A DNA stretch of 56,307 nt, taken from positions 124,001 through 180,307 of the forward strand of contig QPGO01000028.1 in the NCBI GenBank assembly GCA_008632985.1, read 5' to 3'. Numbering within the stretch: position 1 is the stretch's first letter; each line of letters starts with the position of its first letter. Shown here piece by piece: positions 22,430-51,115 of the stretch. A program made the translations under genes and the position numbers. Origin of the DNA: Psammoneis japonica. Lineage: Eukaryota. The notes beneath the pieces were generated by a model. The model saw nothing but the letters and a program-made list of their open reading frames with translations, ran no database searches and had not been told where the DNA came from.

Positions 22430-23830
22430 GAAATTGGATTGCAGCTCAACTCAAAACGTGATTGAGGACCAATGCCATCCAATCCATTTTGCTTGAGCAG
22501 GTCCCTGGCATAGCAGCACACAAAAAATTAAAACCCAGCATCAGCTCTAAGTTGCTTGCCTCATGCTCTTGTGCTTGAGTCATGTGATGAGCAGAGGGAG
22601 AACTTGAGTCTTTGTCACATGCTGCAATGTTGTTGATTTTTTCAGATGCAGCTGCGCAGTGGCACAACCCACTGCCAAGTGTCATTTTTTCCTTCTGCAG
22701 CTGCTCTCTCCAATCATGTTGAGAAAATGTTGGCAGCCCAACGGCATTTGTGCAGGCTGCAAGCCACACATGTGATTCAAGCCAGGTGGAGATTTTTCCA
22801 GATTGTTCATTCAAATGTTGAGAAAAGCCTGCTGTGTCTTCCTGGTTTCTCCTGACCCATCAGAATTTCCAGCTCAGCATGTGCTCGTGGTTGAACACAC
22901 ACTCAAATGACTGCATCAAAACACCACAGGCACTGTTGTGACAAGGAGCCCAGTTGATTTGCAACACAATGTGATTGATGTTGTGTGTCATTGTTGCGTC
23001 CATGGCCAAGGTTTCAGCAACCATTTGACGTGTTTTTCTGCTGAAACATCATGAAGTTGCCATCATTTTGTTGTCTGTTGACACTTCAATCTCATCATTT
23101 TTTGCCATTCTTTCTTTCATGAACACATCACAACAGCTCCCAAGCAATGAATTTTCACATCTCTCATTGGCTGAAGTTTGTTGTTGATTGTCAGTTGTCT
23201 CATTGTTGGTTGACATTCTGATGTTTTCTGCCATCATGGACAATGGTCATGACGAGTCTGTTTTCATGCAAAAAATTGCAAGCAAAAAATGCAAATCTCT
23301 GGTGGCCAATTTGTTGGCTGAATTTTTTGAGGGGCACACAACACCCCAAAATTGCACCCCGAATCTCACCACAGCTTGGCTCAACCTTGTTCCAAAAATC
23401 AGCTGAGCTGGGGTGCAAAACACTGGGAAGAAATGTGTGGCTGTGTGCCAGAAAAGCACAGCGTGGCTGCTCTGTCAACAACTGCTGGGTCAACAAGGGG
23501 TTTTTTCCCTCTGTTGAAAAGAATGGCATGGTGGAGCAGGGAACCCCAACTTGGCTGCCAGCACCCAAAAAATCTCTGGCTGGCTGCTCACTCGTCTGGG
23601 CTGTTGTCAATCTGGCTTCAAACTCGGCCATGATGACGGCGTGGCAGGTTTGAGAGCAGGAGGGTGTGAGTGTCCTTCCTGGTGGCATTGTGGTGTGCCA
23701 TCATTTTGGTGAGTGCTCGTCGACTTGGTGCTGCGAGACCATGAGCGAAAAAGAACATGTGTGTCTTTGTTTTGGTGCTCCATTTGCTCTTGCGTGGGCT
23801 CATGGTGCGCTTTTTGCAGTGTCGTCCGTG
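22430..23830. repeat. TpA/CpG-depleted degenerate block (block 4)
   Basis: TA essentially absent after ~22550; abrupt return of TA-rich sequence at ~23845. Confidence 0.7.
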
Positions 23831-25463: not shown

Positions 25464-27082
25464 ATAATGTATTTGTTTTCTTATTATAAAATAAGTTTGT
25501 GTTTATATGCTTTGCTCGGACTCTAGCACTAAGTAGAGGCTCTCTCTCTCTCGAACAACAATGCTTTCCGGTGGTTGCTGGAGTGCACAAAATGCGTTTT
25601 GCTTTTTTGTTGTTTTGCGCGACAATTTTTGCACAGTGCGTCTGCAATCTTACAAGAGGTTAACCCACTCTTGGTTGAATCTGTGCAATTGCCTCCATGC
25701 AAAAAAACCAAACACCATTGTGTTTTTGCACAGTGCATCTCAATCTTGTCGGCACAGTGAGTGACTCTGGTTGGTTGGCCCACAGTGTGCTGGAACCCAA
25801 GAACATGCGCTGCGGCTGCACACACTGCACTCTGTCCATCATGATGGCTGCACATTGGGGGAGGCAATTGGGTCAAGAACAATTTTGTCAAAGTGAGCAG
25901 AGTCATCTGTGTTGTGGCTCCTGGGGAACGAGCAGCACACTCCACCAGCAGGAAAGGAGTGCTGCAAGGGCTTTGCACAAAGGGAGGGCTCAAGTTGGGC
26001 ACCTGCTGGGGCAGTGCAATTTTGAGTTCAATGATCAGTTTTGTGGGAGGAGCAAGCATTGTGATGGTTGCATTTCTTGTTGCTTTCCTGCCTTCAAACA
26101 GTGTCTTGCAGCTCTGTTGGTTCTTTCCAACAAAAGAGAAGGGTTTGTGCTTTTGATGTGGGGGCACCACTGGCAGGCATCATGAAGAGAGCAAAAGACC
26201 AGCCACAAGAAGAGCTGTTCTCACTTCCCTTGATTGTCCTTCCATTCAACCTGCACTGTTTGGTGCTCTGCAAATGCACACAAAGAAACAGAGAACCCAA
26301 CAGCAGATGCAGCAACATGGCTGTCATTGCTGACATGAGATTGTGGGGGCAAGAACAGCACTCCAGCACCTCCCTCCCAGGTCTGCTGGAGGTCTCACTC
26401 CCAAACACTGCACAAGACTCTGGGTCTCCACCAAAGCATGCATGCACTCCAACCTCAAATGCGGCATCTCACACAAATGACTCTGTGATGTCAATGACAT
26501 CCTGCCCCAGCACACACTGAGATTGGCAGTCAACAACGATCCTTGAGTGCATGCTTTGCAGCCCCCAATGAATTGAAGTGCATCTGTGGATGCCCAGACA
26601 AAGCAGATGATGCCATGCACACATGTGCTCTCAATGTGTCAAATGAGATGGTTGCCATTCACAACAAAAAAACCTTGATTCACCCTCTTCCTTTCATGTG
26701 TTCAGTCAAAGAATGCTTGCTGGAAACAAAGGACACAAACAAATCAGCTGCACCATCATGTGAAAGAAAATGGTGCCAGCTGGTTGTGCTTTTCTGATGA
26801 GATGCAAAGTGAGCCTTGTGCATTTTGGAAGCACAGCTCTCGCCACTTTCTCACAATCATTGCTCAACCTCTTTGCCCCAGTTGGACAACTGGTGTTTTT
26901 TTTTTTTGGAGGCATCTTGGGTGCACTTGCGTCAACTTTCCACCATGCAAACAAAGAACACATTGTGTGCAAATGATGAGTGAGCCAGCACTTGTTTGTG
27001 ATTTGTTTGTGCACCACAGTTTTTCAAGCCAACAAAATTTGCACAAATGCACACTTTTCTTCATGAATGTGGTGCCAGTCAA

Positions 27083-28325
27083 TTTCCTGCAAGTGTGGAC
27101 AATGGCTGTGGTTTTGCAGCAGTTTGCGCCACTCACAGCAGCAGTGTGGTTGAAGTGCTGTTGTCTCATTTGTCGCAAGAGGTCATTGTCTTGGTGACAG
27201 CATCATTCCTGCATGGGTGCAGGGGTCATTGTGAGGTTGTGAGCAGTGCTCCCTTGTGGAAGCAAGGCCCCTCTGACAGCAACAAACACACAAAATTGCT
27301 TTGACAGCCTCTTCTTTTCAACAGTCTTGTTTTCCTGCAAGTGTGAACAATGGCTGTGGTTTTGCAGTGGTTCATGCCACTCATGGCAGCAGTGTGGATG
27401 AAGTGCTGTTGTCTCATTTGTTGCAAGAGGTCATTGTCTTGGTGACAGCATCATTCCTGCATGGGTGCAGGGGTCATTGTGAGGTTGTGAGCAGTGCTCC
27501 CTTGTGGAAGCAAGGCCCCTCTGACAGCAACAAACACACAAAATTGCTTTGACAGCCTCTTCTTTTCAACAGTCTTGTTTTCCTGCAAGTGTGAACAATG
27601 GCTGTGGTTTTGCAGTGGTTCATGCCACTCATGGCAGCAGTGTGGATGAAGTGCTGTTGTCTCATTTGTTGCAAGAGGTCATTGTCTTGGTGACAGCATC
27701 ATTCCTGCATGGGTGCAGGGGTCATTGTGAGGTTGTGAGCAGTGCTCCCTTGTGGAAGCAAGGCCCCTCTGACAGCAACAAACACACAAAATTGCTTTGA
27801 CAGCCTCTTCTTTTCAACAGTCTTGTTTTCCTGCAAGTGTGAACAATGGCTGTGGTTTTGCAGTGGTTCATGCCACTCATGGCAGCAGTGTGGATGAAGT
27901 GCTGTTGTCTCATTTGTTGCAAGAGGTCATTGTTTTGGTGACAGCATCATTGTCCTGCATGGGTGCGGGGGTCATTGTGAGGTTGTGAGCAGTGCTCCCT
28001 TGTAGAAGCAAGGCCCCTCTGACAGCAACAAACACACAAAATTGCTTTGGCGCCTCTTCTTTTCAACCGTCTTGTTTTCCTGCAAGTGTGAACAATGGCT
28101 GTGGTTTTGCAGTGGTTCATGCCACTCATGGCAGCAGTGTGGATGAAGTGCTGTTGTCTCATTTGTTGCAAGAGGTCATTGTTTTGGTGACAGCATCATT
28201 GTCCTGCATGGGTGCGGGGGTCATTGTGAGGTTGTGAGCAGTGCTCCCTTGTAGAAGCAAGGCCCCTCTGACAGCAACAAACACACAAAATTGCTTTGGC
28301 CGCCTCTTCTTTTCAACCGTCTTGT
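27083..28325. repeat. Tandem array of about 5 copies of a ~248-bp unit
   Basis: Near-identical ORF translations start at 27301, 27549 and 27797 (period 248); the last two copies differ by a few substitutions/indels. Confidence 0.93.
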
Positions 28326-28665
28326 TGTCATCTTTGATGTGTGCAAGAAGCTTGGTCTGTTGAGCAACTCATCCTTGTTGATGATGCAAATTTTGCTGTT
28401 TGTTTTCACCAACACAAGTTTTGTTGCCACCACAGTCTCTGCAACACCTGCTCCCAAAACTCAAGTGGGGAAAGATTGGTTGGCTCAGATGCAGATGACA
28501 AAGAGTCGTCAATCTCCCCAACCACCGCACACCCAGGAGGAACCCCAATGAAATCCTCAACCAGGCCCGCCCCAAACTGCACAATTGCTGGTTCTCAATG
28601 CTGCCATTTGCACTCACAGCTCATGGCCCTGCCACCACTGTCACTCCCCACTCCTGCCCCCCCCC

Positions 28666-28904
28666 NNNNNNNNNNNNNNNNNNNNNNNNNNNNNNNNNNN
28701 NNNNNNNNNNNNNNNNNNNNNNNNNNNNNNNNNNNNNNNNNNNNNNNNNNNNNNNNNNNNNNNNNNNNNNNNNNNNNNNNNNNNNNNNNNNNNNNNNNNN
28801 NNNNNNNNNNNNNNNNNNNNNNNNNNNNNNNNNNNNNNNNNNNNNNNNNNNNNNNNNNNNNNNNNNNNNNNNNNNNNNNNNNNNNNNNNNNNNNNNNNNN
28901 NNNN
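28666..28904. other. Assembly gap (N run)
   Basis: 239 N. Confidence 0.99.
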
Positions 28905-29033
28905 ATTGATCTTGCTTGTTCTAGCCAGATCTCAGACTGCTGGACATTTAAAGTGCAGATTGACACATCCGCAACAAAACAGCGGTGCAGCCTCTTGCAG
29001 CTGGCTGACCCAAGCCACAGCTTTGGTGCCGCC

Positions 29034-29944
29034 GACTTGTTCCAGACTTAGGTGCCCTCACGCGCGAAAAAATGACCCTTTTCGCATGAAACGCGCGGTC
29101 CACACTTGCGGTACCATTTTCGATAGTAAAAACATAACAATTTTCAAATGTGTTGTTATGGGTACATACAGAAAGGTCTTGTGCGTGTACCCATGTATTC
29201 GAAACTGTCGATGGGCTCAGTTATTAGTCCCTAAATTGTACCGCAAGTTGAGAGCTCTGTTTTCCGAGGAGCGATTTATAGATGTCTAAATGTGTGTAGA
29301 AACGTATAAAATATTATTCTTATATATAAATTAACCCTCTTACATAACATAATCAATCTTTGGTTACAATGCGCGAATACAACTTTGATTCAACGGATCG
29401 AATAAAACATACGTTGATTTATAAGTTTCGGACGACGTGAGAAGAAGGGTAGCTCAGCCCACGCAATGGCGTCGACTTCGGACCATTTTTCACTGTTTAA
29501 GAGGCATAAACAATTGAGACACTTGAATCCGTCGAATATATTGAGGAAGTATACATGGTAATGGCAAAGAAATGGTCCTTAGAGGCAAATTGTGAGTGAA
29601 TTGAGGCTCAATTGTTGTTGCTGACAGATTTAGTATTATTGTGCCGCGCTGCAACCTGTAACAAGCATTTTCACTATTGTTGTTGATGCCATAGACTATA
29701 TCAAATACGGAGGTCCTCGTCATGACATTAAATTTTCCATAAGGCTGAAAAAAGTGGGCCGTCATGGTCACTGAAAGCCATGGCCGGTTTGGCTGTTTGT
29801 TTGTTCGAGTTTATTCTGTTTATTTTACTTATAAGCAATTAATATGATCAATATGATGAAATATGTACGATGTTGTATAAAGCATAAAAAATTTTTTTTC
29901 TGCGAAAAGGGGCATGTGCGCGCCACCTAAGTCTGGAACAAGTC
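29034..29944. mobile_element. Young non-autonomous DNA transposon: 21-bp perfect TIRs, 4-bp TSD CGCC
   Basis: GACTTGTTCCAGACTTAGGTG (29034-29054) / CACCTAAGTCTGGAACAAGTC (29924-29944); CGCC at 29030-29033 and 29945-29948. Interrupts a repeat whose uninterrupted paralogue lies at ~30676-31030. Confidence 0.88.
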
Positions 29945-29948
29945 CGCC

Positions 29949-32834
29949 AACAGTGCAAGACCCGCACATAGAATCGGTTGCATTGGCTTCTCCAAGTGCA
30001 ATGTTTGGGGCTCAGAAAAGGAGCCAGGCCTGTGCCACATGACTGCTGAACCTCAAACCTCCAGTGTCCCCACCAACGCAACAGCAGCCAAAGTGGAGAG
30101 CAATGGAGTTGCTCACCGATCCATGAGGCAACCAAAATGCAGGCTCACATTGCAAGCTGCTGGACACAACAACCTTGCATCAATGGCATCAAAACCAGGT
30201 GGATGGGAAAGAAAAGTTGGCTGAATGCTTGAGTCCTCTGAAATCCATGAGACAAGACAACAGACAACTTTGCACAGTTTTCAAGGTGCAACTTTTCATG
30301 AGTCAATGTCAGAGTGAAAAGAGCAATGAGCTGGGCAAGTGTTCCAAAAACAAGAATTCAGCCACCTGCAAAAAAAGAATCCAATGCAAACCACAGCAAC
30401 TGTTGACATTTCACTTGGGGGCCATTGTTCTTGGAATCTTTGGCGAAATCCGAACCCAGAAGAAATTGTGCCTGAATTGGACCTTCGTGCCTTCTTGGCT
30501 CAATGTGTTGTAAAGTGATGTGTGTGATGACACTGGCAGAATCCAAATGATTTTGACATCTCTTTAAAAAGAGGGGAACCAAACCACAGATCAATGTCAA
30601 ATGCCCGAATTGTGGTCCATGACCAAGAAGATTGACTCAGTGCCTGGTGAACCCAGAGGTGCACAGAGGCTCTTCATCTTGCTTCTAGATCCTGGAATGC
30701 CAGACATTTAAAATGCAGATTGACACATCTGCAACAAGACAGTGGTGTGGCCTCTTGCAGCTGGCTGACCCAAGCTGCAGCTTTGGCTGCCAGCAGCACA
30801 AGACCCACATGGAATCAGTTGCATTGGCTTCTCTGAGTGTGATGTTTGCGGTTCACAAAAGGAGCCGGGCCCATGCTGCATGACCGCCGAACCCCAAACC
30901 TCTCTGGTGTTCCCACCAATGCAACAGCAAAGCAGAGCAATGGATTTGCTTGCTGATCCATGATGCAACCAAAACAGGCTCATGGTGCAAGCCACTGGCC
31001 ATGACACTCTTGCATCAATGGCTTCAAAACCTTCACATTCTCTTCCAGACCAAATCCTGCCACACCCGTTCAAGTCCACACAAACTTCAGGGGCATCTCC
31101 ATTCTTGGTGTCGACATCTGCCTGTGTGAGTGTGAAACAAGACCTGATGACTCACAGTGCACGTGAGAACCTCAAGAAAGTTTCCAACATTTTTGAACAT
31201 TCCAAACACACAAACTGCATGGGTCCCTTGACAACCAAATCTGTGCCTGTGCCCCATCACTCAGTCCAGTTGATGTTGGGTTCCTGCATCTCAGCATTCT
31301 GAGCTTGAGCAGTTGCTCCCCATCAGAAAGATCCAGCCAAACCACAAGCTTCAAAGACTGTGCGTTTTCATGCATTTGTCATTTGCTGCAGCTCCAAACT
31401 AAAATGTTGCAATTTTGGCTCCTTTTTCTGATTAGATTTGGTGCACAGCATCTTCAAAATCATGTGAAAACTTGTGGTTTCTCTCTACAAACAAGTCAAG
31501 GAGAGTGCAAACAAGTGGTCTGGACACTTCATCATGTGAAATGCTCAAGTTTCATCCTCTGGAAGAGGGTTGAAGTTGGTGAGGTGACTTTGGCAATTTG
31601 TGTAGAAAATGTGACAAGTTCTGTGCAGGTGGAATCTCTGGCCCATTTTTGCACACACACCACCTCAAACAACAATGCTTTCTGTTGGTGGTGTGTGCAA
31701 ATTGTGTTGCTTTCTTCATGTGCAACAACAATGCACTGTTGTGTCTGCAATGCCACACACAAAACAAAAACCAAATGCATGGACTTTTCATGTCATGTGA
31801 GGACAAGTTTGCTCCAGAGAGCAGGCAAAGTCAGTGGCCAAGCTCAGCCAACCAAAGGGGGGGTTGTTGGCAGTGTTCTCTGCAGCAGCTCCAATTGACA
31901 AAGTGGCAAAACATCAAACAGCACAATGATTTTTTTTGTTGGGCTTCACGCAAACAAGAACAAACAAAGCACAGTGAGTCAAATGGAAAAATTCCAGCCA
32001 GAAGTCTTTGAAATGAAAGAGTGTGCCATTCATTGACAGAGTGCACACAACTCATCAGCAGACAATTGGTTGAAACCAGAGAAACAGCATCCTGTGCCAG
32101 TGGTGTGTGCCATGACTGGCAGTGAACCATGACCCTTGAGTGTGTTTTGCAGCCCCCAATTGATGGGAGTGCATCCTTGTTGGATGCAGAAATGAAACAG
32201 ATGGCTCCTGTCACACACCTGTGCTCTCAATGCACCAAATGAGATGGTTGCCGCCCACTTGGATTTTTCATCACTTGAGAGGACATGAACAAATCAGCCA
32301 CATTGCCATGCAAAAGGGGGTGGGGCCAGTTGGTCTTGGTTTTCTGATGAGATGCAGACTGAGCCTTGCTCTTCTTGGAGGCAGAGCTCTTGCTGCTTTC
32401 TTGCCCTCGTCACTCAACCTCTTTGCTTGGGTCAGATGACTGACACATTTGCTCTTTTTTTGGGCATCTTGGGCACTTGTGTCAACTTTTCATTCAAACA
32501 AAAAACAGATTCAGTGCAAATGACCAAGGCAGCACTTGTTTGTGATGGCGACAAGCGACTTGTTGTTTGTGCACCACACAGTGCCTTCTTCAAGCCAATG
32601 AAATGCACAAAAATCCACACTTTTCTTTAATGAACATGACCCCCACCCCCGATTTACTCAAACGAAGCACCCTGCAAGTGTGACGATGGTTGCGGACTTG
32701 TCATGATGGTGCGTGTCATTCACAGCAGCGGTGCAGATGAAGTGCTGAAGTCTCATTTTTTGTGCCGGTGAGGATGGGGGTCCGACAAAAACAACTCTTC
32801 GTGCGTGAAGACGCAGATGCGCATTTTGCATTTT
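29949..32834. repeat. TpA/CpG-depleted degenerate repeat block (block 6)
   Basis: Contains paralogous segments (28905-29030 plus 29949-30197 vs ~30676-31030) and a copy of the ~26560-27180 family. Confidence 0.72.
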
Positions 32835-32838
32835 GACG

Positions 32839-33058
32839 CGAGTGAAATCCGATGCATCAGAGACTGTCCAGTGTGCTCTACAAGTTGAAGTGGCGGGACT
32901 GTGACGTGGTGTCGATGGGAAAGTGACCATGACCATCGATCGGTCTCACTTGTTGCATCCGTTGTAGTTGTAACAGGCCCAGAAGCATCTCATCGGTTGC
33001 ATCGTTGTCGTGCCAAGACTGTGAGTGGCTGAGCCTGTTCGGCAGCTAGATTCACTCG
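32839..33058 (+). repeat. 5' LTR (220 bp)
   Basis: Aligns to the 3' LTR with 12 substitutions and one 3-bp indel. Confidence 0.95.
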
Positions 33059-33072
33059 CTTCATCAGAGCCA
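33059..33072 (+). promoter_or_regulatory. Putative primer-binding site (tRNAi-Met-like)
   Basis: CTTCATCAGAGCCA; the ATCAGAGC core matches the canonical TGGTATCAGAGC but the first four bases differ. Confidence 0.5.
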
Positions 33073-33348
33073 AGTCGTCAACTCAAGTTTAGTTTGACGA
33101 AAAGCGTTGAACAACTGTAAAGAGACGGTCGCACCATTGTGGCAGGGTTGTGGCGACGAATGCCGGTCGATCGAAGGGTGCACGATGATTGTCATCGCCT
33201 GGCATCAGCGAATGCACGAGCAGTGAGGAGACATGGCCAGTCTCCATGCTTCCAATGGCTGTGTGTTGTCGCCAACACATGCTGAGACATCCTTTTGAAT
33301 TTGTGATTTCTCACATGACTCTGTTTTCCTGCTGGCACAGGTGCCACC

Positions 33349-34776
33349 ATGGCGGCTGCTCCTCCGGATCCTATCGAGACAGTGCTCGAATGGATCGGAT
33401 TTGTTGATCCGGCTCAACGAGTCCCGCTCATGACGGACTTTGCGTCTTTTGACGATTTAGAAGACCTCAAGGAAGAGGATGTCGATTCTCTTGCGTCTTC
33501 GCACGCCAGGAGGACGGTTGCTGAAGGGCGCATTTATTTTGGTTTGGCCCGCAGTCGTCGACTCAAAGCTCTCATACATTGGGTTCAGGACTTTGGTCGC
33601 GTGAGCGAGAATCCTGCTCTGGATGGGCTTGATCAAGCCACTTTCCGTGCTGCTCTCCAGACGGCACTTAGTCGCGCCAAGATCCGCTCCCAGACCAAGG
33701 CCACTGCTGACTCTCTCAGTAAAGAGGCGTCGCCCGGAATGTTAGAGAGCGAAAAGGATTGGGTCAAGTGGAGCACCGGTTTGACGAATGTGCTTGGCAT
33801 CATGCTGGGAGTTTCTGGCGTGCTGTTGGTGTGTTGCATTCGTCAAAACGATGCACCCGAACCTCAAGGCCACAACACTTTCGTCCAGAAGTGCATTGCA
33901 TGTGCACCCCTCCAAGGCCCAGCTTTCGAGGCTGACGCTCATACGGTTCATCTGCTCATCGAGTCCCCAACCACGGGCACACCTGGTGAGCAATGGTTGA
34001 AGGACCACAAGAATGAACAGAATGGACGAGTTGACTTTAGGGCGTTGTGCGACCATTGCCAGGGAGAAGGTGACACCTCCCGCCGCATCTCTGAAGCCGA
34101 GCGCATGGAGAACACCCTTCATTGCAAGAGTGAACGCGCCATGCCGTTTGAGTCGTTTGCAAACAAGCTCCAAGAAATGTTCAACATTTTTGACGAGAAC
34201 GACGAACCGAAAACGGAGGCCCAGAAGTTGCGGATCCTTTTTGAGAAGACGCAGCACCAATCACTGCAAGCAGCAGTTGAAACCTTGAAGGCGCAGAAAG
34301 AGTTTGGAGGAGGCATCACGTTCACCACGGCGGCCAATCATCTTGCCGCCAAAGTCGCCACCCTTCCAGAGACGATTGCGCATCGTCGTGCGATTGCCGC
34401 AGTTGCCTCTGGAGGAGGAAGAGAGGGTGGCACCATTTATGATGAGGATGGATCCATTGACACTGGATGCCACAAAAACTGGCACCAGTTGAGCAAGGAG
34501 GACAAACAGAAGGTCATCAACGAGCGCGTGCATCTGGGCATCGCCAAACAACCCAAACCAACCAAACGCCGTGCTGCATCCGTCAAGTCGCTCAAGAAGA
34601 AGAATCAGAAGCTGTCGTCGCAGCTTAAAGAAGCGAACCGCAAAATCTCCGCCCTGAACACTAATGTCAGTGCCGACTCTGGCGATGATGAATCAAGGGC
34701 TGGCGGCAGAGACGGAGACAATGCCGGAGACGCATTCGGTGGTCGCAGCGAAAAGCGCCGAGGAAAGCAGAAATGA
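33349..34776 (+). CDS. gag: Copia Gag-like protein
   Basis: 475-aa ORF between the PBS and pol; LKALIHWVQDF, GEGDTSRR and AFGGR motifs recalled as typical of diatom copia gags. Confidence 0.8.
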   Translation: MAAAPPDPIETVLEWIGFVDPAQRVPLMTDFASFDDLEDLKEEDVDSLASSHARRTVAEGRIYFGLARSRRLKALIHWVQDFGRVSENPALDGLDQATFRAALQTALSRAKIRSQTKATADSLSKEASPGMLESEKDWVKWSTGLTNVLGIMLGVSGVLLVCCIRQNDAPEPQGHNTFVQKCIACAPLQGPAFEADAHTVHLLIESPTTGTPGEQWLKDHKNEQNGRVDFRALCDHCQGEGDTSRRISEAERMENTLHCKSERAMPFESFANKLQEMFNIFDENDEPKTEAQKLRILFEKTQHQSLQAAVETLKAQKEFGGGITFTTAANHLAAKVATLPETIAHRRAIAAVASGGGREGGTIYDEDGSIDTGCHKNWHQLSKEDKQKVINERVHLGIAKQPKPTKRRAASVKSLKKKNQKLSSQLKEANRKISALNTNVSADSGDDESRAGGRDGDNAGDAFGGRSEKRRGKQK

Positions 34777-34815
34777 CTGCTGAGCTGGGCCCTGCTTGGT
34801 TGCATCATAAACTTC

Positions 34816-37800
34816 TTGTTGTGGTTGCCACAATGGGGTGGGGGACAGCCACATCGATCAAAGGAGCAGTGTCCACGTGCCTGTGTCAAACGCATCTGTG
34901 AGGTTGTCACCTCGACGAGACGTGTCTCGGCAACGCGGTCTGACACCACACGAATCACCCACATCCGTGATGTGAGCAAGGTACAGCATGGGCGTCTTGA
35001 AATGGATTCGCATGCTGACACCGCTGTTTTTTGTCAAAACTTTACCCTCTTGGGTCATTCTGGACGAGAATGTGACGTGTTGCCTTTTAACGAGGGATGC
35101 GAGTCCATCAAGAGTGTCCCAATTGTCTCGGCAGCCACGGCGTGGACTTCACCGACATCAGGAGCAACTTTCACTCTGGTCTTCCACGAGGGCTTGTGGA
35201 TGCCGGAGTCCATGGAGCACTCGCTGGTTAACCCAAACCAGCTGCGGCACTTTGGTGTTAAGGTTCAGGACAACCCCTGCTCCGATTCGCCACTGTACAT
35301 CCTCACTGAGGATAGATCTTTCATGATGCCGCTTGAAGCTGTGGGGACCAATGTCGTTGCGGCAACTCGCACTCCTGCAGAGCAGGAATTGCACGAATGC
35401 CCCAAGATCCAGATGACCTCCCAACAACCTTGGGATCCACAGACCGTCAAGTTCAAATCCATTGGAACTCGACGATCTGTGGAGGAGGAAATGGAGCTAG
35501 TTCGGTCAATTGCGACGATCCACACCAATCTAACACACGAGTTCAAAGCTGATCCTGCCTGCAGCAACCCCCAATCCGGGGACTGTTGCAATGAGCGATT
35601 CATTTGTGGAGTCGATCAAGTCCAATCAAGGCTCACAGCTGCCGTTAATGTGGAAATGGAGCCAACAGTCCAGATCTCCGCCACGGAAACAATCGGCAAA
35701 GGACCTGAAGACTCAGCACTCCCGAAGATGTTCATGTCCAAGGAGAGACACAGTGACGCATCGGCTGCTGACTCAAGTGAACGATGGTGCATGGGACTCA
35801 AGCAAGCAGCAAGTGCGCTCAAGAAGACCACACAAAAGCTCATCAGGTCAGCGTTGATGCCTGTGGGTCGGCGCCATCGGGCCGATCGGATGTTCACAAA
35901 GCCCAGGTTACGGGGTGAATGGGCAACCGACACGGTGGACGGCAAGGTGGTTTCGCTGGAGGGCAATCGACATGCCCAGATCTTCACAAACAAGCAACAC
36001 TTCGCTGCGATCTATCCCATGGACAAGAAGAGTAAGGCTGGCGAGGCTCTCAAGACGTTTTGCCAGGAATTTGGCGTGCCAGAGAAACTCCTGATGGACG
36101 GATCTAAGGAGCAAACAAAACCTGGCACGGAGTTCATGAAGACCGTGCGTGAGGAGGGCATAGATTGTCACATCATCGAACCTGATCGACACAACCAGAA
36201 TCCTGCAGAAGGAGTTGCACGCGAGGTTGGACGCAAGTGGTTCCGCATCATGGTCAAGAAGCAAGCACCGCGGCGACTGTGGGACTGCGGATTTACAAGG
36301 ACATGTGAGACCATGTCTTGCACATTCCTTCGAGCACATCATTTGGATGCAGGAGCACCACTAGAGAACGTTCTCAGAGAGACCGTGGACATCTCGGAGC
36401 ACCTCGACTTTGGATTTTATGATTGGGTCTGGTGCAGGGAGAATGCCGGTCCAGGGGACGAGAAGCTTGGTGGGTGGCTTGGTGCATCTCACAGAACAGG
36501 GAGTCTCATGTCGCACCACGTTCTGACACAGACAGGCAGTGTATTTCGAGAACTTCCGTCCAACGAGTCACCAATTTGGAAGCCGCCACTCAAGAGAAAA
36601 AGGCAGAGTTCGACAGTTTTGACGAGGAGATCAAGCGGCGGTTGAAGGAGCAAGATTTCCCCGATGACGAGGATCGTAAGATCAGTCCCGAAGACTGGAA
36701 AGACTGCCTTGGATACGACGATGAATTCCTCGATGAGTGTGATCGTGTCATGTCCTCAGAGGAGGTGGCAAATGACGACGACGATAAGAAAGACGAGGAA
36801 GCCTCACCGGAGGCGGCGGACTGGGGACACATTAACATGGAGGTTGCCCTTCCACGAGATGACAATGGTCCTGAGTTTGCTCATGTCACGAAGAGGTTGA
36901 GAGATGCCAATGGTGTTCCAACAGGAACGGCTGATGACAATCCCATCCTTGACACAAGGATGTGTGAGGTAGAGTGCCCTGATGGGCACCATGCTGCGCT
37001 CTCTGCTAACTCCATTGCCATGAACATGTTTGCTCAGATCGACGAGGACGGAAACCGGCACGTCTCATTCGATGAGATCATTGATTGCCGCACCAACGGG
37101 GACGTTCCTGAATCCGAATTCTTTGAGACCGAGCGAGGCATTTGGAAGAGGCGCAAGACCACCAAAGGATGGGAACTTTTATTCCAATGGAAGGATGGAA
37201 GTGCAACTTGGATCGACTTGAAGATTGCGAAGGAGAGCTTCCCAGTCCAAGTTGCCGAGTTCGCCATTCAGCGCAAGATCTCGGGTGAGGCAGCGTTTGC
37301 TTGGTGGGTTCCTCATGTCATGAAAACCCGCAAGCGTTCCATTGTGAAGGTCAAGTCGAAGTGCTGGCTACGAACACACAAATTTGGCACACGGATCCCG
37401 AAGAGTGTCAAGGAGGCGATCCAGATCGATCGCGCAAATGGCAACACACTGTGGTGGGACGCCATTTGCATGGAGATGAAGAACGTGCGGGTTGCTTTTG
37501 ATGAGTGTGAAGGGGAGCTTAAGGACATGGTGCCTGGTTTCCAGGAAGTGAAGTGCCACATGATTTTTGACATCAAGTTGGGAGAAAACTTCCGCCGTAA
37601 AGCTCGTATGGTGGCTGGAGGCCACACCACTGAAACCCCCGCACACATCACTTGCTCCTCTGTCGTCTCTCGGGATTCGGCAAGAATTGCACTGACGCTT
37701 GCTGCGCTCAATGACTCACAAGTCTTTGCGCGTGACATCCAGAACGCCTGCCTTGCTGCCCCTTGCAGGGAGAAGATTTGGACCAGAGCAGGGTCCGAGT

Positions 37801-39077
37801 TTGGCGAAGATGAAGGTTGCATCATGATTGTGGTCAGGGCCCCACACGGATTGAAGAGCTCTGGAGCAGTGTTCAGGGCTTTTCTGGCAGAGACGCTTTA
37901 TGATCTAGGGTGCAAACCGAGCAAGGCTGATCCGGATGTGTGGATGAGACCTGCGGTGAAACCCAACGGATTCGAGCACTGCGAATGCGTTCTAGTTTAC
38001 GTGGACGACGTGCTGTCGATTGGCCACGAACCCATGAAGACGATGGATGGCATCAGGTCCAAGTTCAAGCTCAAGGGTGATGAGGTAGCCGAACCGGATT
38101 CCCACCTCGGTGCCACGCTTTCCAAGATGACTTTAGCCGATGGGACCACCTGTTGGGCAATGTCTGCAGAGAAGTGCTGCAAGTCCGCTGTCCAAAATGT
38201 AGAGGACAGGCTTGGCAAGGAGGGGAAACGTCTGCCTGGCAAGGCGACAACCCCATTGAGCAGTGGATGCAAACCCGAGTTAGATGCCACTGGCGAGTTG
38301 GACGCTGAAGGACTTCACCATTGTCAAGAGCTGATTGGTGTGCTGGTTTGGGCGGCAGAACTCGGTGGAGTGGACATCCATTTGGAGGTTTCGTTGATGT
38401 CTGCTCACCTCGCTCTCCCTCGCATTGGTCATCTGGAACAGGCATTGCGTGTCTTTGCATGCCTTGAACAGGTCCCAAAGCGCCAAGCAGCATTCGATCC
38501 GGCTCATCCCAAGATCGATGAATCACGATTCGTGAAGTGCGACTGGTGCGACTTCTGCCGAGATGCAAGAGAAGCCATTCCGACAAATGCATCGCCAGCT
38601 CGAGGTAATGCAGTGTCGACACATTGTTTTGTGGATGCCAACCATGCCGGAAATGTTGCCGATCGCCGCAGCCATGCAGGTGTCTTGATGTTTGTCAACC
38701 GGGCACCCATTGTGTGGCACTCGAAGCGTCAGAATGCCGTGGAGGCTAGCACATTTGGAGCAGAGATCGTTGCACTCAAGAATGCTGTCGAGCTCGCAGA
38801 GAGTCTACGACACAAGCTTCGAATGTTTGGAGCACCGATCGAAGGGCCAACAAATGTCTTCTGTGACAATGAGGCCGTCCACAAGAATTGCTCTGTTCCT
38901 GAGTCTACACTCAAGAAGAAGCATCACTCCATTGCGCATCACCGTAACCGCGAAGCTGTTGCTGCGGGGACTGTTAGGATTGCAAAGGAGGGAACAGAGA
39001 CAAACCTTAGCGATCTATTCACGAAGGTCATGTCGTCTGTCAGGCGAAATTTTCTGTTAGACAAGTTCACGCACTAA
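34816..39077 (+). pseudogene. pol: Copia Pol (protease, integrase, RT, RNase H); frameshift at ~36542 and many missense changes
   Basis: PR LEMDSHADT; IN WATDTV / MDGSKEQ / QNPAEG; RT KARMVAGGH, GLKSSG, YVDD; RNase H FVDANHAG, STFGAE, CDN, NLSDLFTK. Two overlapping ORFs join at GSV/ISRTSVQR. Confidence 0.93.
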
Positions 39078-39261
39078 GATGGATGCGTGAAGCGGTGGTG
39101 AGTTTCTTCCCTAGTGAGGGTTTACACCATGCACAAAGGATTGGCGGCTTTTCCCTGGCAAGGGTTTTACGTCGATTAATGAGTCAAGATGTTTGAGCTA
39201 GATCACTGATGCAGCATTGGGTCGAATTGTGCCTTACGAGTCAGGTACATTTCGAGGGGAC

Positions 39262-39484
39262 CGAGTGAAATCCGATGTATCAGAGACTGTCTAGTGCGCT
39301 CTATAAGTTGAAGTGGCGGGACTGTGACGTGGTGTCGATGGGAAAGTGACCATGACCATCGATCGGTCTCACTTGTTGCATCCGTTGTAGTTGTAACAGG
39401 CCTAGAAGCATCTTATCGGTTGTATTCGCGTTATCGTACTAAGACTGTGAGTGGCTGAGCCTATTCGGCAGCTAGATTTACTCG
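39262..39484 (+). repeat. 3' LTR (223 bp)
   Basis: CGAGTGAAA...TTTACTCG; carries 15 TA dinucleotides versus 4 in the 5' LTR. Confidence 0.95.
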
Positions 39485-39585
39485 GACGTTTTGCAAAAAA
39501 AAAATCTCAAAAAACCGCGTGCGTCTTCGAAATCATGTTTCAAGTTTACCGGTCTGCTGAAGAAACTGAAAACAGAGCCATCCTC

Positions 39586-41428: not shown

Positions 41429-42205
41429 CTACAACTCGTTGCCATGGTTTTGCGAGATGCAAATCTTTGGAAACCCAGCTTTTCCCTCAAACTCGTCGTC
41501 CGCATGATACTCTACAGAGGCATCCAGAAGTGTCGCCAAGTCATTAATTTCTTTCTCATGACGTTCTTGATCAATCCATAGACCGACTTGTCCCCCTGTA
41601 CGCAGGCATCGCGCAATCTCATTTACATTCTTTTGTGTTAGCGGAGCACCCTGCATGGTAATGTAATCTGCAAAGTGGTCCTCAAACGGAAATGAGGGGT
41701 TTGTGCTCCAATCTGGTACCTTGACTAGCAATGGAACGCTCCTATCTGGGTACTGGGAGTCCTTGTCTGTGTCGTTTACATTTATGGCATTTGCAAATCC
41801 GCTTACAACACCATCTTTTTCGTGATGACCTTCTCCTCCAATATCCAAGTGAATGCAATAATCATGGTTGATTCCAAGACTCTTGCGACTTACTTGTACA
41901 TTAGCCGGCACAGGAGGACCAATCTGACGGTTGATGTCGCAAACAATTTGTTGCAGGGTGGGACGTTGTTGTGAGCCGAGAGCGGCTTTGTTGTTGGACG
42001 TGTTGTTTGCTTTCTCTTCTTTTCCGCAATCATCATCATTGTTGAGGGCGTGTTGATGAGTCCCAACGATGGCGAGAACAACGATTGCGACAACAGCAAT
42101 AAAAGCAGCTTCTTTCGAGAGTTTCGTCGAGAAATCTTGCGTGGGGTCGAAAAAGCAAAAGGCACGCGCAGGGGGGCTGATTTCGTGCAGAAAAGCCATC
42201 GTCAT
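41429..42205 (-). CDS. Membrane-anchored/secreted protein with class I SAM-methyltransferase-like C-terminus
   Basis: Hydrophobic AAFIAVVAIVVLAIVG; HLDIGGEG (motif I-like), FPFEDHFADYI, EIARCLRTGG. Start uncertain (ORF open to 42409). Confidence 0.6.
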   Translation of the reverse strand: MTMAFLHEISPPARAFCFFDPTQDFSTKLSKEAAFIAVVAIVVLAIVGTHQHALNNDDDCGKEEKANNTSNNKAALGSQQRPTLQQIVCDINRQIGPPVPANVQVSRKSLGINHDYCIHLDIGGEGHHEKDGVVSGFANAINVNDTDKDSQYPDRSVPLLVKVPDWSTNPSFPFEDHFADYITMQGAPLTQKNVNEIARCLRTGGQVGLWIDQERHEKEINDLATLLDASVEYHADDEFEGKAGFPKICISQNHGNEL

Positions 42206-43800
42206 TCCACTGCATTCGCCTTGTCCATTCGCAGATGCACTCAACCGAGCGGCGTTCTTGCAAATTTGAAAGCTGTGCTTTGCAAGGAACGGGCCCGACA
42301 GTTTCCAATGTTGTGCGCAGGCAGGGGGGTTGCTGAACGGACAATGCTCTGGATGCCTTTGAAACTGACATTTTCCAAGTGGGAGACCATCAAGGAAGGC
42401 AACAACCATTCTAACAACATCTCAGGTTGACCGCAACCATTGCCGCGCCGCGAAAACCGACATGCGATCGATCGCGTGGCGCGCGCGCGTGCGGCTCGGC
42501 TGTCGGTCGCTCATGCGTGCAGGTCTTTCATTTCACAGAGAGTGAAGGCATCGCCCTCATCGCATCTCTTGCCTGCAAAATTGTCGGTTCCATACAAAAC
42601 GTACAGTACAAACATTTGACAAAGAACGAAATGACTGATTCAATTAAGAGTGGAGAATGGGTGTTATGTGGTGTTTCTATTGCCTTGCCAGTCAGATCCT
42701 TAAACACTGTAACATTTAAGCAATTTTTCGTTAAAAGTCGAGCGCACCGAAAGACCTCGGCTATACATGGCATACGACTCATGCTACAGTACAAATTTGA
42801 GAACACCTGGCTTTGTCGCGCACCAAGCTTTTTCGAGTTCCAGGTGCGGAAAAATTTTCCCTTCCTGCCTCGTTTGCACCAGATCAAGTGGAACACACAG
42901 AGAAAAGTGATGCCGCTCGCAGTCTCTGTCCTCTCCTTCTCCGACGAAAACAAGCGTGTACCGTCATGGGAGGGAACCTTGCAAACTACCACTGATGTCT
43001 TTTGTTGATTGCATTTGTGTCGTAATCTTTCGCGAGGATGTACAAGTCGTGGTCGATTGTGTAGAATTCTACTTGCTCTTGTACAAAATCTGCCTTGGGC
43101 GCGTGAGCTATGTCGCACAGCACTACTCTCTACGGTAATTTGACGTCATTTAGGGGAGCCAGTCATCCGCCATGCGCGAATTCTTGCAAATTGATTTGCC
43201 ATTTGTAAATTTGTATGGCAAATGCCCTCTTGGCACATCCTTGGGGCATGCATTTCGCGAGGATGATGTTTTGCATGTCGAAACGACCGCAAGATGAAGT
43301 CAAAACCAATCAGATCGAACCTTTGTGCGATGGTTGGTCCTGGTTTGCAAACATTTAACAACGAGAACCCCTCTCATTTCCTCTCTTTTCTACATACTAC
43401 CATTTTCTGAGATCGACTGATGAAGCCTCCTGCATCAAAAACCCCATAAAACGTCAACACACAAGAGACAACAACACCAATAGCGAACGGTAAGCTGAAG
43501 CTCTATTTTCAGAGATTTTGACTGAAGATTGCCACAGAAGTCGTCCAGAGTGCTATGTTGGATGTTTGCTGACAGCAGAGTGGACGCTGTCTTTAAAGTC
43601 TAGTGGATTCATCCTTGTATATGGTAACAAATTCTTCATTCGTCTCACTTATTTTCCCTCAATTGTACACAGACTACCAATAATTCAAGAAAAAGCATAA
43701 CAGCAGTATCCTGGCCGTGGGCTAGCAAGAAGCATACAACGTAGTAACAAGAACAGCTGACTTGTGACAATATACGAGGCGCGTCAAGAATACAACAAGG

Positions 43801-46800
43801 ATGAATCTCATTTTCGGAACATCCTTCTTTCTATTTCTCAACCTACTCATCTCGAAGACAACAAGTGCGACTCCTAATTTGGATCCCTCTGGTGATACCA
43901 GCGATTCCTACGAGAAAAGGCCATTCTCTACGGTAAGTCTTCCTCCAGCTTTGTACACCACGCACAATGTATCCATCTCCACTCATCTGTTTCCGCTCTG
44001 GCTATCAGCATATTGTTCCCTCGGAAGACGCATCAGACGCCAAGGAGGAGGATCAGGATTCTTCCGTTGCAACACGACGTACCGGATGGGAGAACCGCGT
44101 CATCTTTCACGGCACCGTGTGGTACGACGACAACGCTAATAGCAGAATCGACGAAGGAGAGGAAGGCGTGCCAGGCGCCATTATCCAACTCTACCGCACA
44201 TTCGGCTTCATCGATCGCGATCCGCAGCTCGTCAAAGCCACAAAAGCCCGTGGTGATGGGACGTTCATAATACTCTTGCAAGAGAAAGAAATTGTCAATA
44301 AAAACAAGTACTTCCTCAGGTTCCTTCATACCAACACTGATACCTACAAGTTTGCGCCCATCATAAAAGGTGGCGACAGTCATGTGAACAATCAAGGAGG
44401 AGACACTGTCCCGAAGACTTTGGTGTACGGAAAAACGTACCAGGTCGATGCGGGGCTCGTTGTAAGGGAAGGAGTCGTATTCTACGGTCGCGTGTGGCTC
44501 GATGCAAACCGAAACGGAAGGATCGATAGACAAGAGACTGGGTTGAGAGGCGCTAATATTCATCTATTTCATCGCGAGTTGTCAGGCAAGACTCCAAAGT
44601 TCAAGCTCATCAAGAGTGACAGGGCTCTCGGCGATGGCACATATGAGCTCCATTTGAACAGAGTTCCTGGTGGCAAATACTCTTTGAAGTTTTCCGGTCA
44701 TGACAAAGAAAAGTATGTTTTCACATCAAGACTGCCAGGTGGAGATAATCATGTCACGGCGAAAGGAAGCGCAAAACTGGAGAAAGTAGATGAAGGCAAG
44801 CGCTACAACGTAAACGCTGGAATAACTTATAAAACTCCGGTCTGTGGGGACCATGTGCTCTTCGACGAGGTCACCAAGACGCCGCTGACTGGGTCTTGCG
44901 ATGCGTACGACAAGCTTTACAAGGACTTGTGCCCGCCCGTCGACACGAGCGTTGCCAATCCTCAGTATCTTCCTCCTGGCGGCAGCAGCCCCACCTGTCC
45001 TGGCTATTGCTGCGGAAACTGGGGCTCTGGCGGGACTTGTCCCATCTCGTGGCAAAATAGCTGGCGGCATGCGTTCCCAGGAGTGATCGTTCCAGAATGC
45101 GACGGCAAGGAAGATCCTGGGGAATGTGAAGTCGTGTTGCTGAGAGACAAAAGGAATGCAGCTGGCCTCCCTTCCACCTCATGTTCTGTCGGGGAGGGTA
45201 ACTGGATCTTTCCATCTATCTCGTGCTGGACTGGCAATGACTTGACGAGTGAGGTTCGAGTGGGAGTGAACACAAAGGTGACTTTGTGCTCCCATGCTGG
45301 CGAATGCGCGAATGGCGGTTCCACATATACCCGAACGAGAACCTCTGGCCCAGAGTCGGTTCCGGTCTCTGGTCTTTCTGAGCTGCGCGTCGAGTGTGTT
45401 GCTAATAACCCATGTGATGACCGTTTGTTCTTTGATGCGGTGAACAAGATGCCACTTACCGGGCCTTGCAATGCGTACGACAAGTTCTACAAGGATTTTT
45501 GCCCGCCAGTTGACACGAGCGTCGCCAACCCTCAGTACCTTCCTCCTGGCGGCAACAGTCCCACTTGTCCTGGCTATTGCTGCGGATCGTGGGGCCAAGA
45601 CGGGACTTGCCCAAACTCATGGCAGAACAACTTGCAGAAAGCACATCGAGGAGTAATCGTTCCGGCGTGCGATGGCAAGGAAGAGCCAGGTGAATGTGAG
45701 GTCGTGTTGGTGAGAGATGAAGGGAATCATGCTCGCCTGCCTTCCTTGTCATGTTCTGTCAAAGAAGGTTACTGGTTCTTCCCATCTATCCAATGCTGGA
45801 CTGGCAATGACTTGACCAGTGAGGTCCGTCTGGGAGTGAACACAAAGGTGACTTTGTGCCCACATCATTGCGCAAGTGATGGCGGAACCACACATACTCG
45901 CACGAGAATCTCTGGCCCCAAGTCGGTTCCGGTTTCTGGTTTTTCTGAGCTGCGCGTTGAATGTATCCAGGAAGAACCCTCACCAGCTAGCTGCAAGCCT
46001 GATAATTCGTTGCTTCTCTTCTCTGGGCATGACATGGCATCTTCGTTGATGTTAGGGGAAGTCAATGTAACGTGGTCGCCCGCCTTTGTGTTTCACAAAC
46101 ACGATAAAAAGCTAATCTGGTGTGGTGATTACGTGTACGATGTCTTTATTGACTCAACTGGAGCTTTCGCCTTCGCTGCCACCAACGCAAGCTTCCCAAA
46201 GCTCCTTGAATTGGCAAACAAAGACTACCAGTATCATGTTAAACACTACGAGACACAAGACACAACACTTGCAACTTCCCTGTATCCGGGATTAACTTAC
46301 AAGATCCTTGTCACGGCACGAACTAAGACGGGTTTGGAATCCTTTAATCGCGATTTCGCCGAGGTTCAAGTGTCGTGGACAAACCCGGTTTTACGGGCCG
46401 GTTTTCAACGTGTTGTTAATCTTCCTGAACCAAATGGAGATTTCTCTGCATGGTTCGGAAAGCATGGGGGTGAGGATGTTGCCCACTTTCAAGGGGAGGT
46501 CCCTGATGAACTTCGAGACCTCAAAAAAGGGGATCATGTCTACATATCGGATGCTGACGGGAGGACAGAACTAGGACTGGTTAAGCAACTGCAAAATGAG
46601 CTCCTTGGTGGTCTGAGTCATGTCACGCTAGTCTACTCGCCTTCTGGCATGGATGGCATTTACGAGGAGCTTGACTTTGGCGCGGACGTTGCCAATGCCG
46701 ACGACTTGGATATCGATGACTTGGTCGACTTCAGCCCGGAAGTCGAGGAAATTGCGAGCGACGATGCGATCAGAAGTCTTGATGAGCATGTGCTGAAGCA

Positions 46801-50522: not shown

Positions 50523-50881
50523 ATCTGACGCTAATTGAACAAGGACGAATCATTGAAGCCTGCGGCGGAGCCCACGCAGCCCTGCCTGTCCTGTTGTCCT
50601 GTTGTTTGACCATGTGTCCATGATGTGAAGATCGCCGGCCTGTCGTCCTCCCTCTGTCCGTCCATCCACGTGACAGTCTGGTGGTCTGGCCATCTGTTGA
50701 GCAGTCCAGTGGTGTGGCATGTGGTGTCAACCAATTGTTCTTCCTGCTCGGTTCATGCTGCCATAATTTCCAATTGCACATTTTCCACAAGACAAGGATG
50801 ATTGTTCTTCACCCCATTGAGGACTGTTTCTGATCTGAGACTGGCAGAGTTCAGCTGAAAGTTTTTGTTCGCCCGTCTCAT

Positions 50882-51115
50882 GGCCTGTTCCAGCTCCACC
50901 TGTCCCAAAAAGGTGTGAGATCCATCGCTGGCCCATTTTTGCATTTGGCACAATGAACTCCTTCAAAATTGATGTTTCCCAAATCATTTTTTTATGTGCA
51001 CTCACCTTTCAATTTTCAAAATGATCAAATTGAAGCAAATCAATGTGCCAAGCTGTGCAGGAAATCGGCATGTGTCGCACAATGGATTGCAGATCACCTG
51101 GATTTGGAACAGGCC
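50882..51115. mobile_element. MITE, family A, copy 2
   Basis: Termini GGCCTGTTCCA ... TGGAACAGGCC; homologous to 15560-15818. Confidence 0.75.

Follow-up and report, generated by a model that had tools for sequence, protein, structure and literature searches.

Why should the two long terminal repeats (LTRs) of a retrotransposon, which are copied from the same template, come to differ at almost nothing but TA dinucleotides? The question is raised by a copia-type element at positions 32839-39484 of a stretch of DNA from the diatom Psammoneis japonica (assembly GCA_008632985.1, contig QPGO01000028.1, positions 124,001-180,307, forward strand), the whole of which, 56,307 nucleotides in length, is called the window below. 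The answer argued for here, with a probability of roughly 0.8, is that the integrated element lost TA by a TpA to CpA/TpG process acting on chromosomal DNA, and that the same process made the old TA-free blocks that surround it. The parts of the element are as follows, with TA content given as a count or as the ratio of observed to expected dinucleotides (o/e).

32835-32838, + strand: target-site duplication GACG, 5' copy (the same four letters stand at 39485-39488)
32839-33058, + strand: 5' LTR of 220 bp, the mutated copy (4 TA, TA o/e 0.33)
33062-33071, + strand: primer-binding-site-like stretch directly after the 5' LTR, recognized by eye from the sequence
33319-34773, + strand: upstream open reading frame (ORF) of 485 amino acids in the gag position (tyrosine 0.4%)
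34777-36642, + strand: first part of pol, 622 amino acids, in the same frame as the upstream ORF past one TGA (tyrosine 0.5%)
36423-39074, + strand: second part of pol, 884 amino acids, in another frame, matching RVT_2 with E=1.1e-10 (tyrosine 0.3%)
39254-39260, + strand: polypurine-tract-like GAGGGGA just upstream of the 3' LTR, a putative function assigned from position
39262-39484, + strand: 3' LTR of 223 bp, the unmutated copy (15 TA, TA o/e 1.03)
39485-39488, + strand: target-site duplication GACG, 3' copy (matches 32835-32838)

Direct LTRs of 220 and 223 bp, a 4-bp target-site duplication and a reverse transcriptase of the copia type (RVT_2) place the element in Ty1/copia. Both of its junctions are bridged by single-copy contigs of a public run (X1, records 4 and 7), the passage from flank into 5' LTR by record 4 at a depth of 61, and a scripted search of the window finds two LTR copies only. 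The stretch at 33062-33071 is a putative counterpart of the initiator-tRNA primer-binding site of copia elements, and the upstream ORF has no Pfam match. Among 8,000 candidates scored, 2,239 are homologs of pol at E<=1e-5, and the best 120 of these 2,239 have 57-65% identity, each with a precomputed assignment to Pfam PF07727 (RVT_2). The first pol part aligns to homolog residues 18-544, and the second retains the tyrosine of YVDD. The frame of pol changes near 36528-36546, and other copies in the contigs of the run have an extra base at 36541/36542. With one frame change and 29 of 32 conserved tyrosines replaced, the element no longer has intact coding capacity.

Between the two LTRs there are 12 substitutions and a single 3-bp indel, three letters (TCG) that only the 3' LTR has. 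At eleven of the substituted sites the 3' LTR reads TA where the 5' LTR reads CA (8) or TG (3); at the twelfth the 3' LTR reads CG and the 5' LTR TG. In total, the 3' LTR contains 15 TA and 15 CG, the 5' LTR 4 TA and 13 CG. These figures come from a scripted comparison, which agrees throughout with the substitutions, the indel and the 8 CA, 3 TG and one CG/TG differences counted in an earlier interpretation made from the DNA letters (the sequence-only reading). The chance that at least 11 of 12 substitutions would fall within the 13.5% of bases that belong to TA is 2.7e-9 (binomial), and the contrast drawn in that reading between TpA and CpG sites holds, with 11 of 15 TA and 1 of 15 CpG changed (Fisher p=4.8e-4), so that TA change in the LTRs is about ten times faster than CpG decay. 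Expressed as events, the rate is about 1.3 per TA dinucleotide versus 0.0026 per other base, or approximately 250-fold per base. The terminal-repeat pairs found in 22 of 80 related metagenome loci, which are a rough control only, carry 176 substitutions in all, comprising 20 between TA and CA/TG, 34 between CG and CA/TG, 40 other transitions and 82 transversions; the share of TA to CA/TG differences is therefore 20/176 in the control versus 11/12 in the LTR pair (Fisher p=4.7e-9). CA and TG outcomes are unclustered along the element, forming 5 runs in the LTR versus about 5.4 expected and 9 in pol versus about 9.8 (hand count).

The LTR pair on its own is symmetric and cannot show which copy changed, and the direction must be read from elsewhere. 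When pol was aligned with 25 homologs and the columns in which tyrosine (Tyr) is conserved in at least 80% of them were inspected, the 32 such columns were found to hold 3 Tyr, 10 histidine (His, CAY), 15 cysteine (Cys, TGY) and 4 phenylalanine (Phe) residues in the element, so that 25 of the 29 changed columns are His or Cys, one transition away from Tyr. The intact relatives L001-L003 retain 30-31 of the 32 tyrosines; none of 24 conserved His/Cys columns has turned into Tyr in the element; and 85% of the other conserved residues of its pol are kept. Tyr makes up 0.3-0.5% of the ORFs of the element, versus 2.7-4.3% of the 120 homologs and 3.1% of the protein of a neighbouring host gene, and none of the 120 homologs listed, which serve as outgroups only, is depleted of Tyr. 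A contig of another copy from the same sample (X2 record 12) matches 39432-39484 exactly and then enters a different flank; 5 of the 11 LTR sites, 39479 among them, thus read TA in another copy of the element. Of 80 related loci, 79 have a TA o/e of 0.38-0.90, versus 0.19 in the interior of the element and 0.33 in its 5' LTR. The 5' LTR also merges into a TA-poor domain, and normal DNA adjoins the 3' LTR. Taken together, the Tyr columns, the Tyr content, the outgroup copy and the family norm indicate that TA is the ancestral state and that CA and TG are derived in the 5' LTR and the interior. Loss rather than gain of TA had been proposed in the sequence-only reading, which a family state of CA or TG at these sites would have contradicted; the outgroup copy has TA at the 5 sites that it covers, TA o/e is higher in the family than in the element, and the Tyr columns and the continuity of the LTRs with their surroundings point the same way.

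The change affects both strands, with 8 CA versus 3 TG in the LTR and 10 His versus 15 Cys in pol, and with CA o/e and TG o/e approximately equal, rising together, in all blocks of the window. Thus, a TpA-specific A:T to G:C change on both strands, as first proposed, is borne out by 11 of 12 LTR sites, by pol and by the dinucleotide ratios. That it arose in chromosomal DNA after integration is likewise supported, since the LTRs differ and the loss of TA spans about 290 bp of single-copy flank. The surviving TAs hint at a wider motif. Sorted by their neighbours (R for purine, Y for pyrimidine) into RTAY, mixed and YTAR, they number 7/26/23 in the window element, versus 6292/8997/3411 in a baseline of 18,700 TAs from 68 intact relatives of the same family (p=8e-6), and 5/30/23 in a second element, L034, that is described below (p=3e-6 versus the same baseline). 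This shift from RTAY to YTAR suggests a strand-specific preference for 5'-TAY. A context test against the host-gene blocks of the window was set aside in favour of the same-family baseline because it is confounded by stop-codon avoidance.

The element lies within a mosaic. Normal blocks of the window contain about 20 TA and 28 CG per 500 bp, and depleted blocks contain 0-3 TA and 1-6 CG, with CA and TG nearly doubled (o/e 1.7-2.2). Depleted blocks total approximately 27.0 of the 56.3 kb, and the longest run free of TA extends for 2,342 bp (25661-28003). The GC content of depleted blocks remains level, at 0.44-0.50, because the loss of TA and the loss of CG offset each other. The blocks, none of which is assigned to a strand, are the following.

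3341-7391, unstranded: old TA-free, CpG-poor block (TA o/e 0.04, CG 0.17, CA 1.83, TG 1.90)
10321-12951, unstranded: old TA-free, CpG-poor block (TA o/e 0.05, CG 0.35), with a weak, sub-threshold RT_RNaseH match at 11153-11428
15901-19931, unstranded: old TA-free, CpG-poor blocks in two segments (TA o/e 0.04-0.05)
22561-23701, unstranded: old TA-free block (TA o/e 0.00, CG 0.20)
25731-28931, unstranded: old TA-free block with the longest TA-free run, containing a 248-bp tandem repeat and a run of N
30081-32781, unstranded: old TA-free, CpG-poor block immediately before the element (single copy in contigs of the run)
32549-39100, unstranded: young TA-poor, CpG-normal domain (interior TA o/e 0.19, CG 0.82)
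49751-55601, unstranded: old TA-free, CpG-poor block (TA o/e 0.04, CG 0.30), the depletion running to the window end

In the old blocks CG o/e is 0.12-0.47, and the LTR element represents an intermediate state in which TA has been lost (0.19) and CpG is near normal (0.82). The upstream edge of the young domain lies in single-copy flank, about 290 bp before the 5' LTR; at the other end the depletion wanes between approximately 38900 and 39100, about 200-350 bp ahead of the 3' LTR. Targeting to repeats, which was part of the sequence-only reading, finds no support, as the domain starts in single-copy DNA and an element of about 100 copies within a TA-free block has been spared; neither repetitiveness nor location in a silent block can be sufficient, and the process looks domain-limited rather than repeat-limited. 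The depletion coincides with blocks whose CpG has decayed and which are presumably methylated, an indication that the domain may be set by chromatin state. Depleted blocks sit between host genes, and the neighbouring gene blocks are normal; they encode Mito_carr, LHC, GH28, Pkinase, FG-GAP and GT61 proteins and a 1,638-amino-acid SdrD_B protein, and for the light-harvesting gene every best homolog with a name is a fucoxanthin-chlorophyll protein of a diatom.

The spared element (29036-29942) is about 0.9 kb long, has 19-bp terminal inverted repeats, and is TA-rich (33-38 TA per 500 bp) and CpG-normal; its summed contig depth of 4,000-6,200, versus about 55 for unique DNA, corresponds to about 100 copies. 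The sequences on either side of it (28927-29030 and 29946-30196) are homologous to a contiguous sequence 1.7 kb downstream (30687-31031), an "empty site" paralogue by which the element is recognized as an insertion. Older copies with the same or similar ends, decayed in both TA and CpG, are found at 52133-52203, 15559-15822 and 50881-51119. As to what the old blocks once were, DNA similarity to elements with terminal inverted repeats is the only hint: a comparison with Pfam of 123 ORFs of at least 88 amino acids from the TA- and CG-free blocks, drawn from 195 listed ORFs of at least 70 amino acids, gave only two sub-threshold matches (RT_RNaseH, E=0.0018; HA, E=3.5e-4), which are within chance for 123 queries. 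A tandem array of about five 248-bp units with 92-98% identity occupies 27083-28329 within a TA-free block, and 239 consecutive N come after it at 28666-28904. A patch of 390 bp in a normal gene region (42061-42451; TA o/e 0.09, CG 0.99), overlapping an ORF on the - strand (41432-42421), may be a small hypermutated fragment or may be due to chance.

The depleted sequence is also present in contigs of a public run. Among the runs listed, X1 alone contains the stretch, no RNA run being listed for it, and two more runs of the same sample were drawn on. X1 contigs with a depth of 61-64, built by a different assembler than the assembly's, differ from the unique TA-free flank (29917-32866) at 3 letters over about 3.0 kb. 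Diverged copies within the depleted blocks differ at shared dinucleotides, one reading CA where the other reads TG, and indels and transversions surround such sites. The pattern is best read as independent decay, as in evolved sequence. A second element shows the same footprint. L034, a 6.4-kb contig (1-6429) from an unrelated metagenome assembly, belongs to a different copia lineage (54% protein identity) and is not among the 12 loci nearest to the window in DNA. Its 31 Tyr columns hold 4 Tyr, 11 His, 15 Cys and 1 Phe; its pol gives one uninterrupted match over 1,381 residues; and its TA o/e is 0.29 with CG at 0.86, the first 1 kb being normal and the TA-poor part extending over approximately 1001-6000. 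Two further loci are too weak to call, L033 with 5 His and 1 Cys in 23 Tyr columns and L041 with 3 His and 1 Cys in 20, and an LTR pair was looked for in L034, L033 and L041 and not found. Two other related copia loci, L049 and L065, have a CpG o/e of 0.01-0.02 with TA o/e of 0.38-0.47 and Tyr largely kept (14 of 18 in L065). The decay of CpG alone in these loci, versus the loss of TA with near-normal CpG in the window element and L034, makes the two processes separable.

The history that would account for these observations begins with insertion of the Ty1/copia element at the border of an intergenic block that was silent and had already decayed. Once the element was integrated, TpA to CpA/TpG change (A:T to G:C on either strand) would have removed about 70-80% of TA dinucleotides from the 5' LTR, from the interior and from some 290 bp of flank upstream, and the last few hundred bases and the 3' LTR, adjoining active genes, would have escaped. 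Acting for longer, and with slower decay of CpG coming after it, the same process would yield the TA-free, CpG-poor blocks that fill about half of the window. The candidate chemistry is enzymatic deamination of adenine in 5'-TA-3', with 5'-TAY-3' preferred, by a TadA/ADAT-like deaminase whose target would be the DNA of silenced chromatin. The domain would be set by chromatin state, and the process may be episodic or tied to a rare stage of the life cycle. If it serves as a genome defence, mobile elements would be killed by missense changes (Tyr to His or Cys, and others) without the use of stop codons. TpA change creates no in-frame stop and destroys TAA and TAG, so killed elements keep long ORFs on both strands; the element region has 19 ORFs of at least 100 amino acids, with long frames on both strands and more TGA than TAA and TAG together.

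Chromosomal hypermutation specific to a dinucleotide and directed from A:T to G:C was not known before one preprint of 2026 (Mettrop et al., bioRxiv 10.64898/2026.01.13.699255), and the view of the sequence-only reading that no such system had been described is outdated: the portions of the preprint drawn on here report the same spectrum arising de novo, as TpA to TpG/CpA, in mutation-accumulation lines of Bigelowiella natans sequenced by Illumina. Of 302 new single-nucleotide mutations in these lines, 231 lay in two regions of integrated viral DNA; nearly all were A to G or T to C, and these all at TpA, at a rate of about 6e-7 per site per generation in some lines only, approximately 1000-fold above background. 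The affected DNA consists of a giant-virus insert of 186 kb and a virophage insert of 25 kb, whose TpA content is still 3.3% and 9.2%, respectively. The genome contains 124 clusters of 1-kb windows depleted of TpA and enriched in CpA plus TpG, and RT and DDE domains are enriched among its TpA-depleted coding sequences. An ADAT2-like protein is proposed there as the deaminase, as a candidate only, and DNA activity is cited for a few ADAT2 proteins.

As far as those portions go, the two cases share a spectrum of almost only A to G and T to C, confinement to TpA, both strands, a regional distribution with normal neighbouring genes, and long-term depletion of TpA with enrichment of CpA plus TpG in clusters. 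They differ in host, B. natans being a rhizarian and P. japonica a diatom (a stramenopile), both within Sar, and in target, which is viral inserts in B. natans and an LTR retrotransposon plus intergenic repeats here. They differ in extent: when the cluster thresholds of the preprint are applied to the window, 24 of its 56 1-kb windows pass, in runs of up to 6, and 11 more pass the TA threshold alone, compared with 124 clusters across the whole genome of B. natans, and TA is almost fully erased here. Decay of CpG alongside the loss of TA in the old blocks is a further difference, and the process that was caught in real time in B. natans lines is read here from a sequence footprint, at about 250-fold per base from the LTR pair. 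The same portions of the preprint make no mention of diatoms, stramenopiles, LTR pairs or a wider TAY context, and a search of the literature, which did not reach subscription journals, found no earlier report of TpA hypermutation in a diatom and no description of the spectrum other than the preprint. Thus, the window is a diatom case of the hypermutation first reported in 2026 in B. natans, and what is new here is the in-situ evidence of an LTR pair, a much heavier footprint, a second, environmental case (L034) and a candidate wider motif.

Other known systems resemble the process in part. Repeat-induced point mutation (RIP) of ascomycetes also consists of dinucleotide-specific transitions in mobile elements, on both strands of chromosomal DNA, with a diagnostic skew, and works as a genome defence, as is proposed here. 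However, RIP is CpA to TpA (C:G to A:T), lowers GC and creates stops, whereas the change here is opposite, leaves GC approximately level and creates no in-frame stops; RIP also belongs to fungal hosts, a RID-type methyltransferase, duplicated DNA and the sexual phase, whereas the host here is a diatom. Deamination of 5-methylcytosine (5mC) likewise produces TG and CA from a palindromic YpR dinucleotide in silenced repeats, and its signature is present here in the low CG o/e of the old blocks and in 1 of the 12 LTR differences, but it leaves TA alone, and the loss of TA is far faster (11/15 versus 1/15). APOBEC3, acting on cDNA, and ADAR, acting on double-stranded RNA and also preferring a 5' U, restrict retroelements by enzymatic deamination; they act before integration on one strand and change both LTRs, whereas here the LTRs differ, both strands are affected and DNA other than retroelements is included. 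TadA, ADAT2-ADAT3 and the base editors derived from TadA convert A to I and require a 5' T/U, but the natural substrate of TadA and ADAT is tRNA, their activity on DNA being engineered or reported for few ADAT2 proteins. The natural tRNA context of TadA is U33-A34-C35 (U-A-C), which the TAY preference here resembles.

Of the explanations that compete with enzymatic TpA loss after integration, the one that survives best accepts the same spectrum and substitutes another chemistry or logic, namely that a modified thymine in TpA miscodes (for example, an oxidized form such as 5-hydroxymethyl- or 5-formyl-uracil that pairs with G), or that untargeted TpA damage is repaired only in active chromatin and so accumulates in silent DNA as passive decay; it is unlikely but deserves some weight. 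T to C and A to G occur equally often, and the sequence does not reveal which member of the base pair is hit; the depleted blocks coincide with CpG-decayed, presumably methylated silent DNA and end near genes; and the unmutated young high-copy element in a silent block shows that there is no immediate targeting. The likeness of the 5'-TAY preference to the U-A-C context of TadA would speak instead for a deaminase. An induced enzyme is also a better fit than passive decay to the approximately 250-fold excess per base in the LTRs and to the episodic, line-specific bursts described in the B. natans preprint (10.64898/2026.01.13.699255).

An artefact of sequencing, base-calling or polishing, in which heterochromatin is misread at modified bases (modified T or A in TpA, 5mC in CpG), would explain why both depleted dinucleotides are typical modification targets and why the depletion is confined to silent blocks, and the X1 run may be the assembly's own data, its platform not being recorded. 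Such an artefact is nevertheless very improbable, as contigs from the other assembler agree with the TA-free flank to within 3 letters in about 3.0 kb, diverged copies read CA versus TG at one position and also differ nearby by indels and transversions, L034 from its unrelated metagenome assembly has the same Tyr to His/Cys pattern, and, by the part of the preprint drawn on above, the same changes arose in Illumina data of B. natans (10.64898/2026.01.13.699255).

Editing before integration, either of RNA from A to I by ADAR or ADAT or of cDNA by deamination, with later gene conversion of the 3' end from an intact copy, stands no better chance. Retroelement RNA and cDNA are known targets of deaminases (for example, APOBEC on LTR elements), and dozens of family copies could have served as conversion donors. 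However, both LTRs are copied from one template, so that editing before integration cannot make them differ, and RNA editing should leave identical changes in both LTRs on the transcribed strand only, whereas 11 TA sites differ and the changes occur on both strands in similar numbers; TA has also been lost from about 290 bp of single-copy flank, from old copies of DNA elements with terminal inverted repeats and from single-copy intergenic blocks, and the 4-bp target-site duplication is intact.

RIP or another C to T process, by which CA and TG would be ancestral and the 3' LTR would have gained TA, is scarcely credible: the LTR pair alone is symmetric, the 5'-LTR version lengthens the terminal inverted repeat (33054 versus 39479), and the TA o/e of the 3' LTR (1.03) exceeds the whole-element range of relatives (0.29-0.90), but the direction is opposite to C to T at CpA, gain of TA being contradicted in the interior by 25 of 32 Tyr columns turned His or Cys with 0 of 24 turned the other way, another copy has TA at 5 of 11 sites including 39479, the 5' LTR (0.33) fits the mutated interior rather than the family norm, stretches of as much as 2,342 bp with no TA cannot be ancestral, and the host is not a fungus.

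Several points weigh against loss of TpA after integration as set out above. The TA-rich element of about 100 copies lies unmutated inside a TA-free block. For 6 of the 11 LTR sites there is no outgroup, and at 39479 the 5'-LTR version gives the longer terminal inverted repeat, although the outgroup nonetheless has TA. Four Tyr columns have become Phe (TTC), a transversion outside the TpA process. The best 40 of 671 differences to other copies do not polarize the LTR sites, and their main class (15 of those 40) is CA/TG in this copy versus CG in others, a CpG lost by this copy alone. Counted over all copies, the four transitions occur about equally often (A>G 151, T>C 135, C>T 135, G>A 128), a balance that fits the process but gives no direction. 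Among Tyr codons, a purine precedes 6 of 7 that became His and 7 of 12 that became Cys, a difference in the direction predicted by a TAY preference but not significant (p=0.33). Because X1 may derive from the assembly's own sample, on a platform not recorded, agreement with its contigs is not a fully independent check.

The occurrence of the footprint in a different major lineage, in heavier form, and in an environmental contig makes the process look widespread rather than a curiosity of one alga. It is possible, though rather doubtful, that TpA-directed deamination of adenine in silenced DNA is an ancient genome defence shared across Sar, by diatoms and chlorarachniophytes at the least, and a mirror of RIP, carried out by a TadA/ADAT-like enzyme at 5'-TAY and strong enough in diatoms to clear much of the intergenic genome of every TA; if so, it would also fill genomes with long ghost ORFs, which gene finders would annotate as orphan genes. 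Diatoms include transformable model species, in which the enzyme could be sought by knock-out, and the suggested 5'-TAY preference can be tested against candidate deaminases. A natural DNA adenine deaminase, if that is what acts here, would be of interest for base editing. The LTR pair provides a natural in-situ clock, running about 250-fold over background per base and about ten times as fast as CpG decay. Because GC is unchanged and TAA and TAG are destroyed, repeat scans based on GC miss such regions, and gene finders call false ORFs in them.

Across 33059-39261 and all depleted blocks of the window, the loss of TAA and TAG leaves many long open frames on both strands, in which orphan-gene calls are to be expected from gene finders. 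Among the host genes, the SdrD_B gene contains an internal tandem duplication of a Cys-rich module (44843-45397 and 45413-45964), the two copies having 80% identity.

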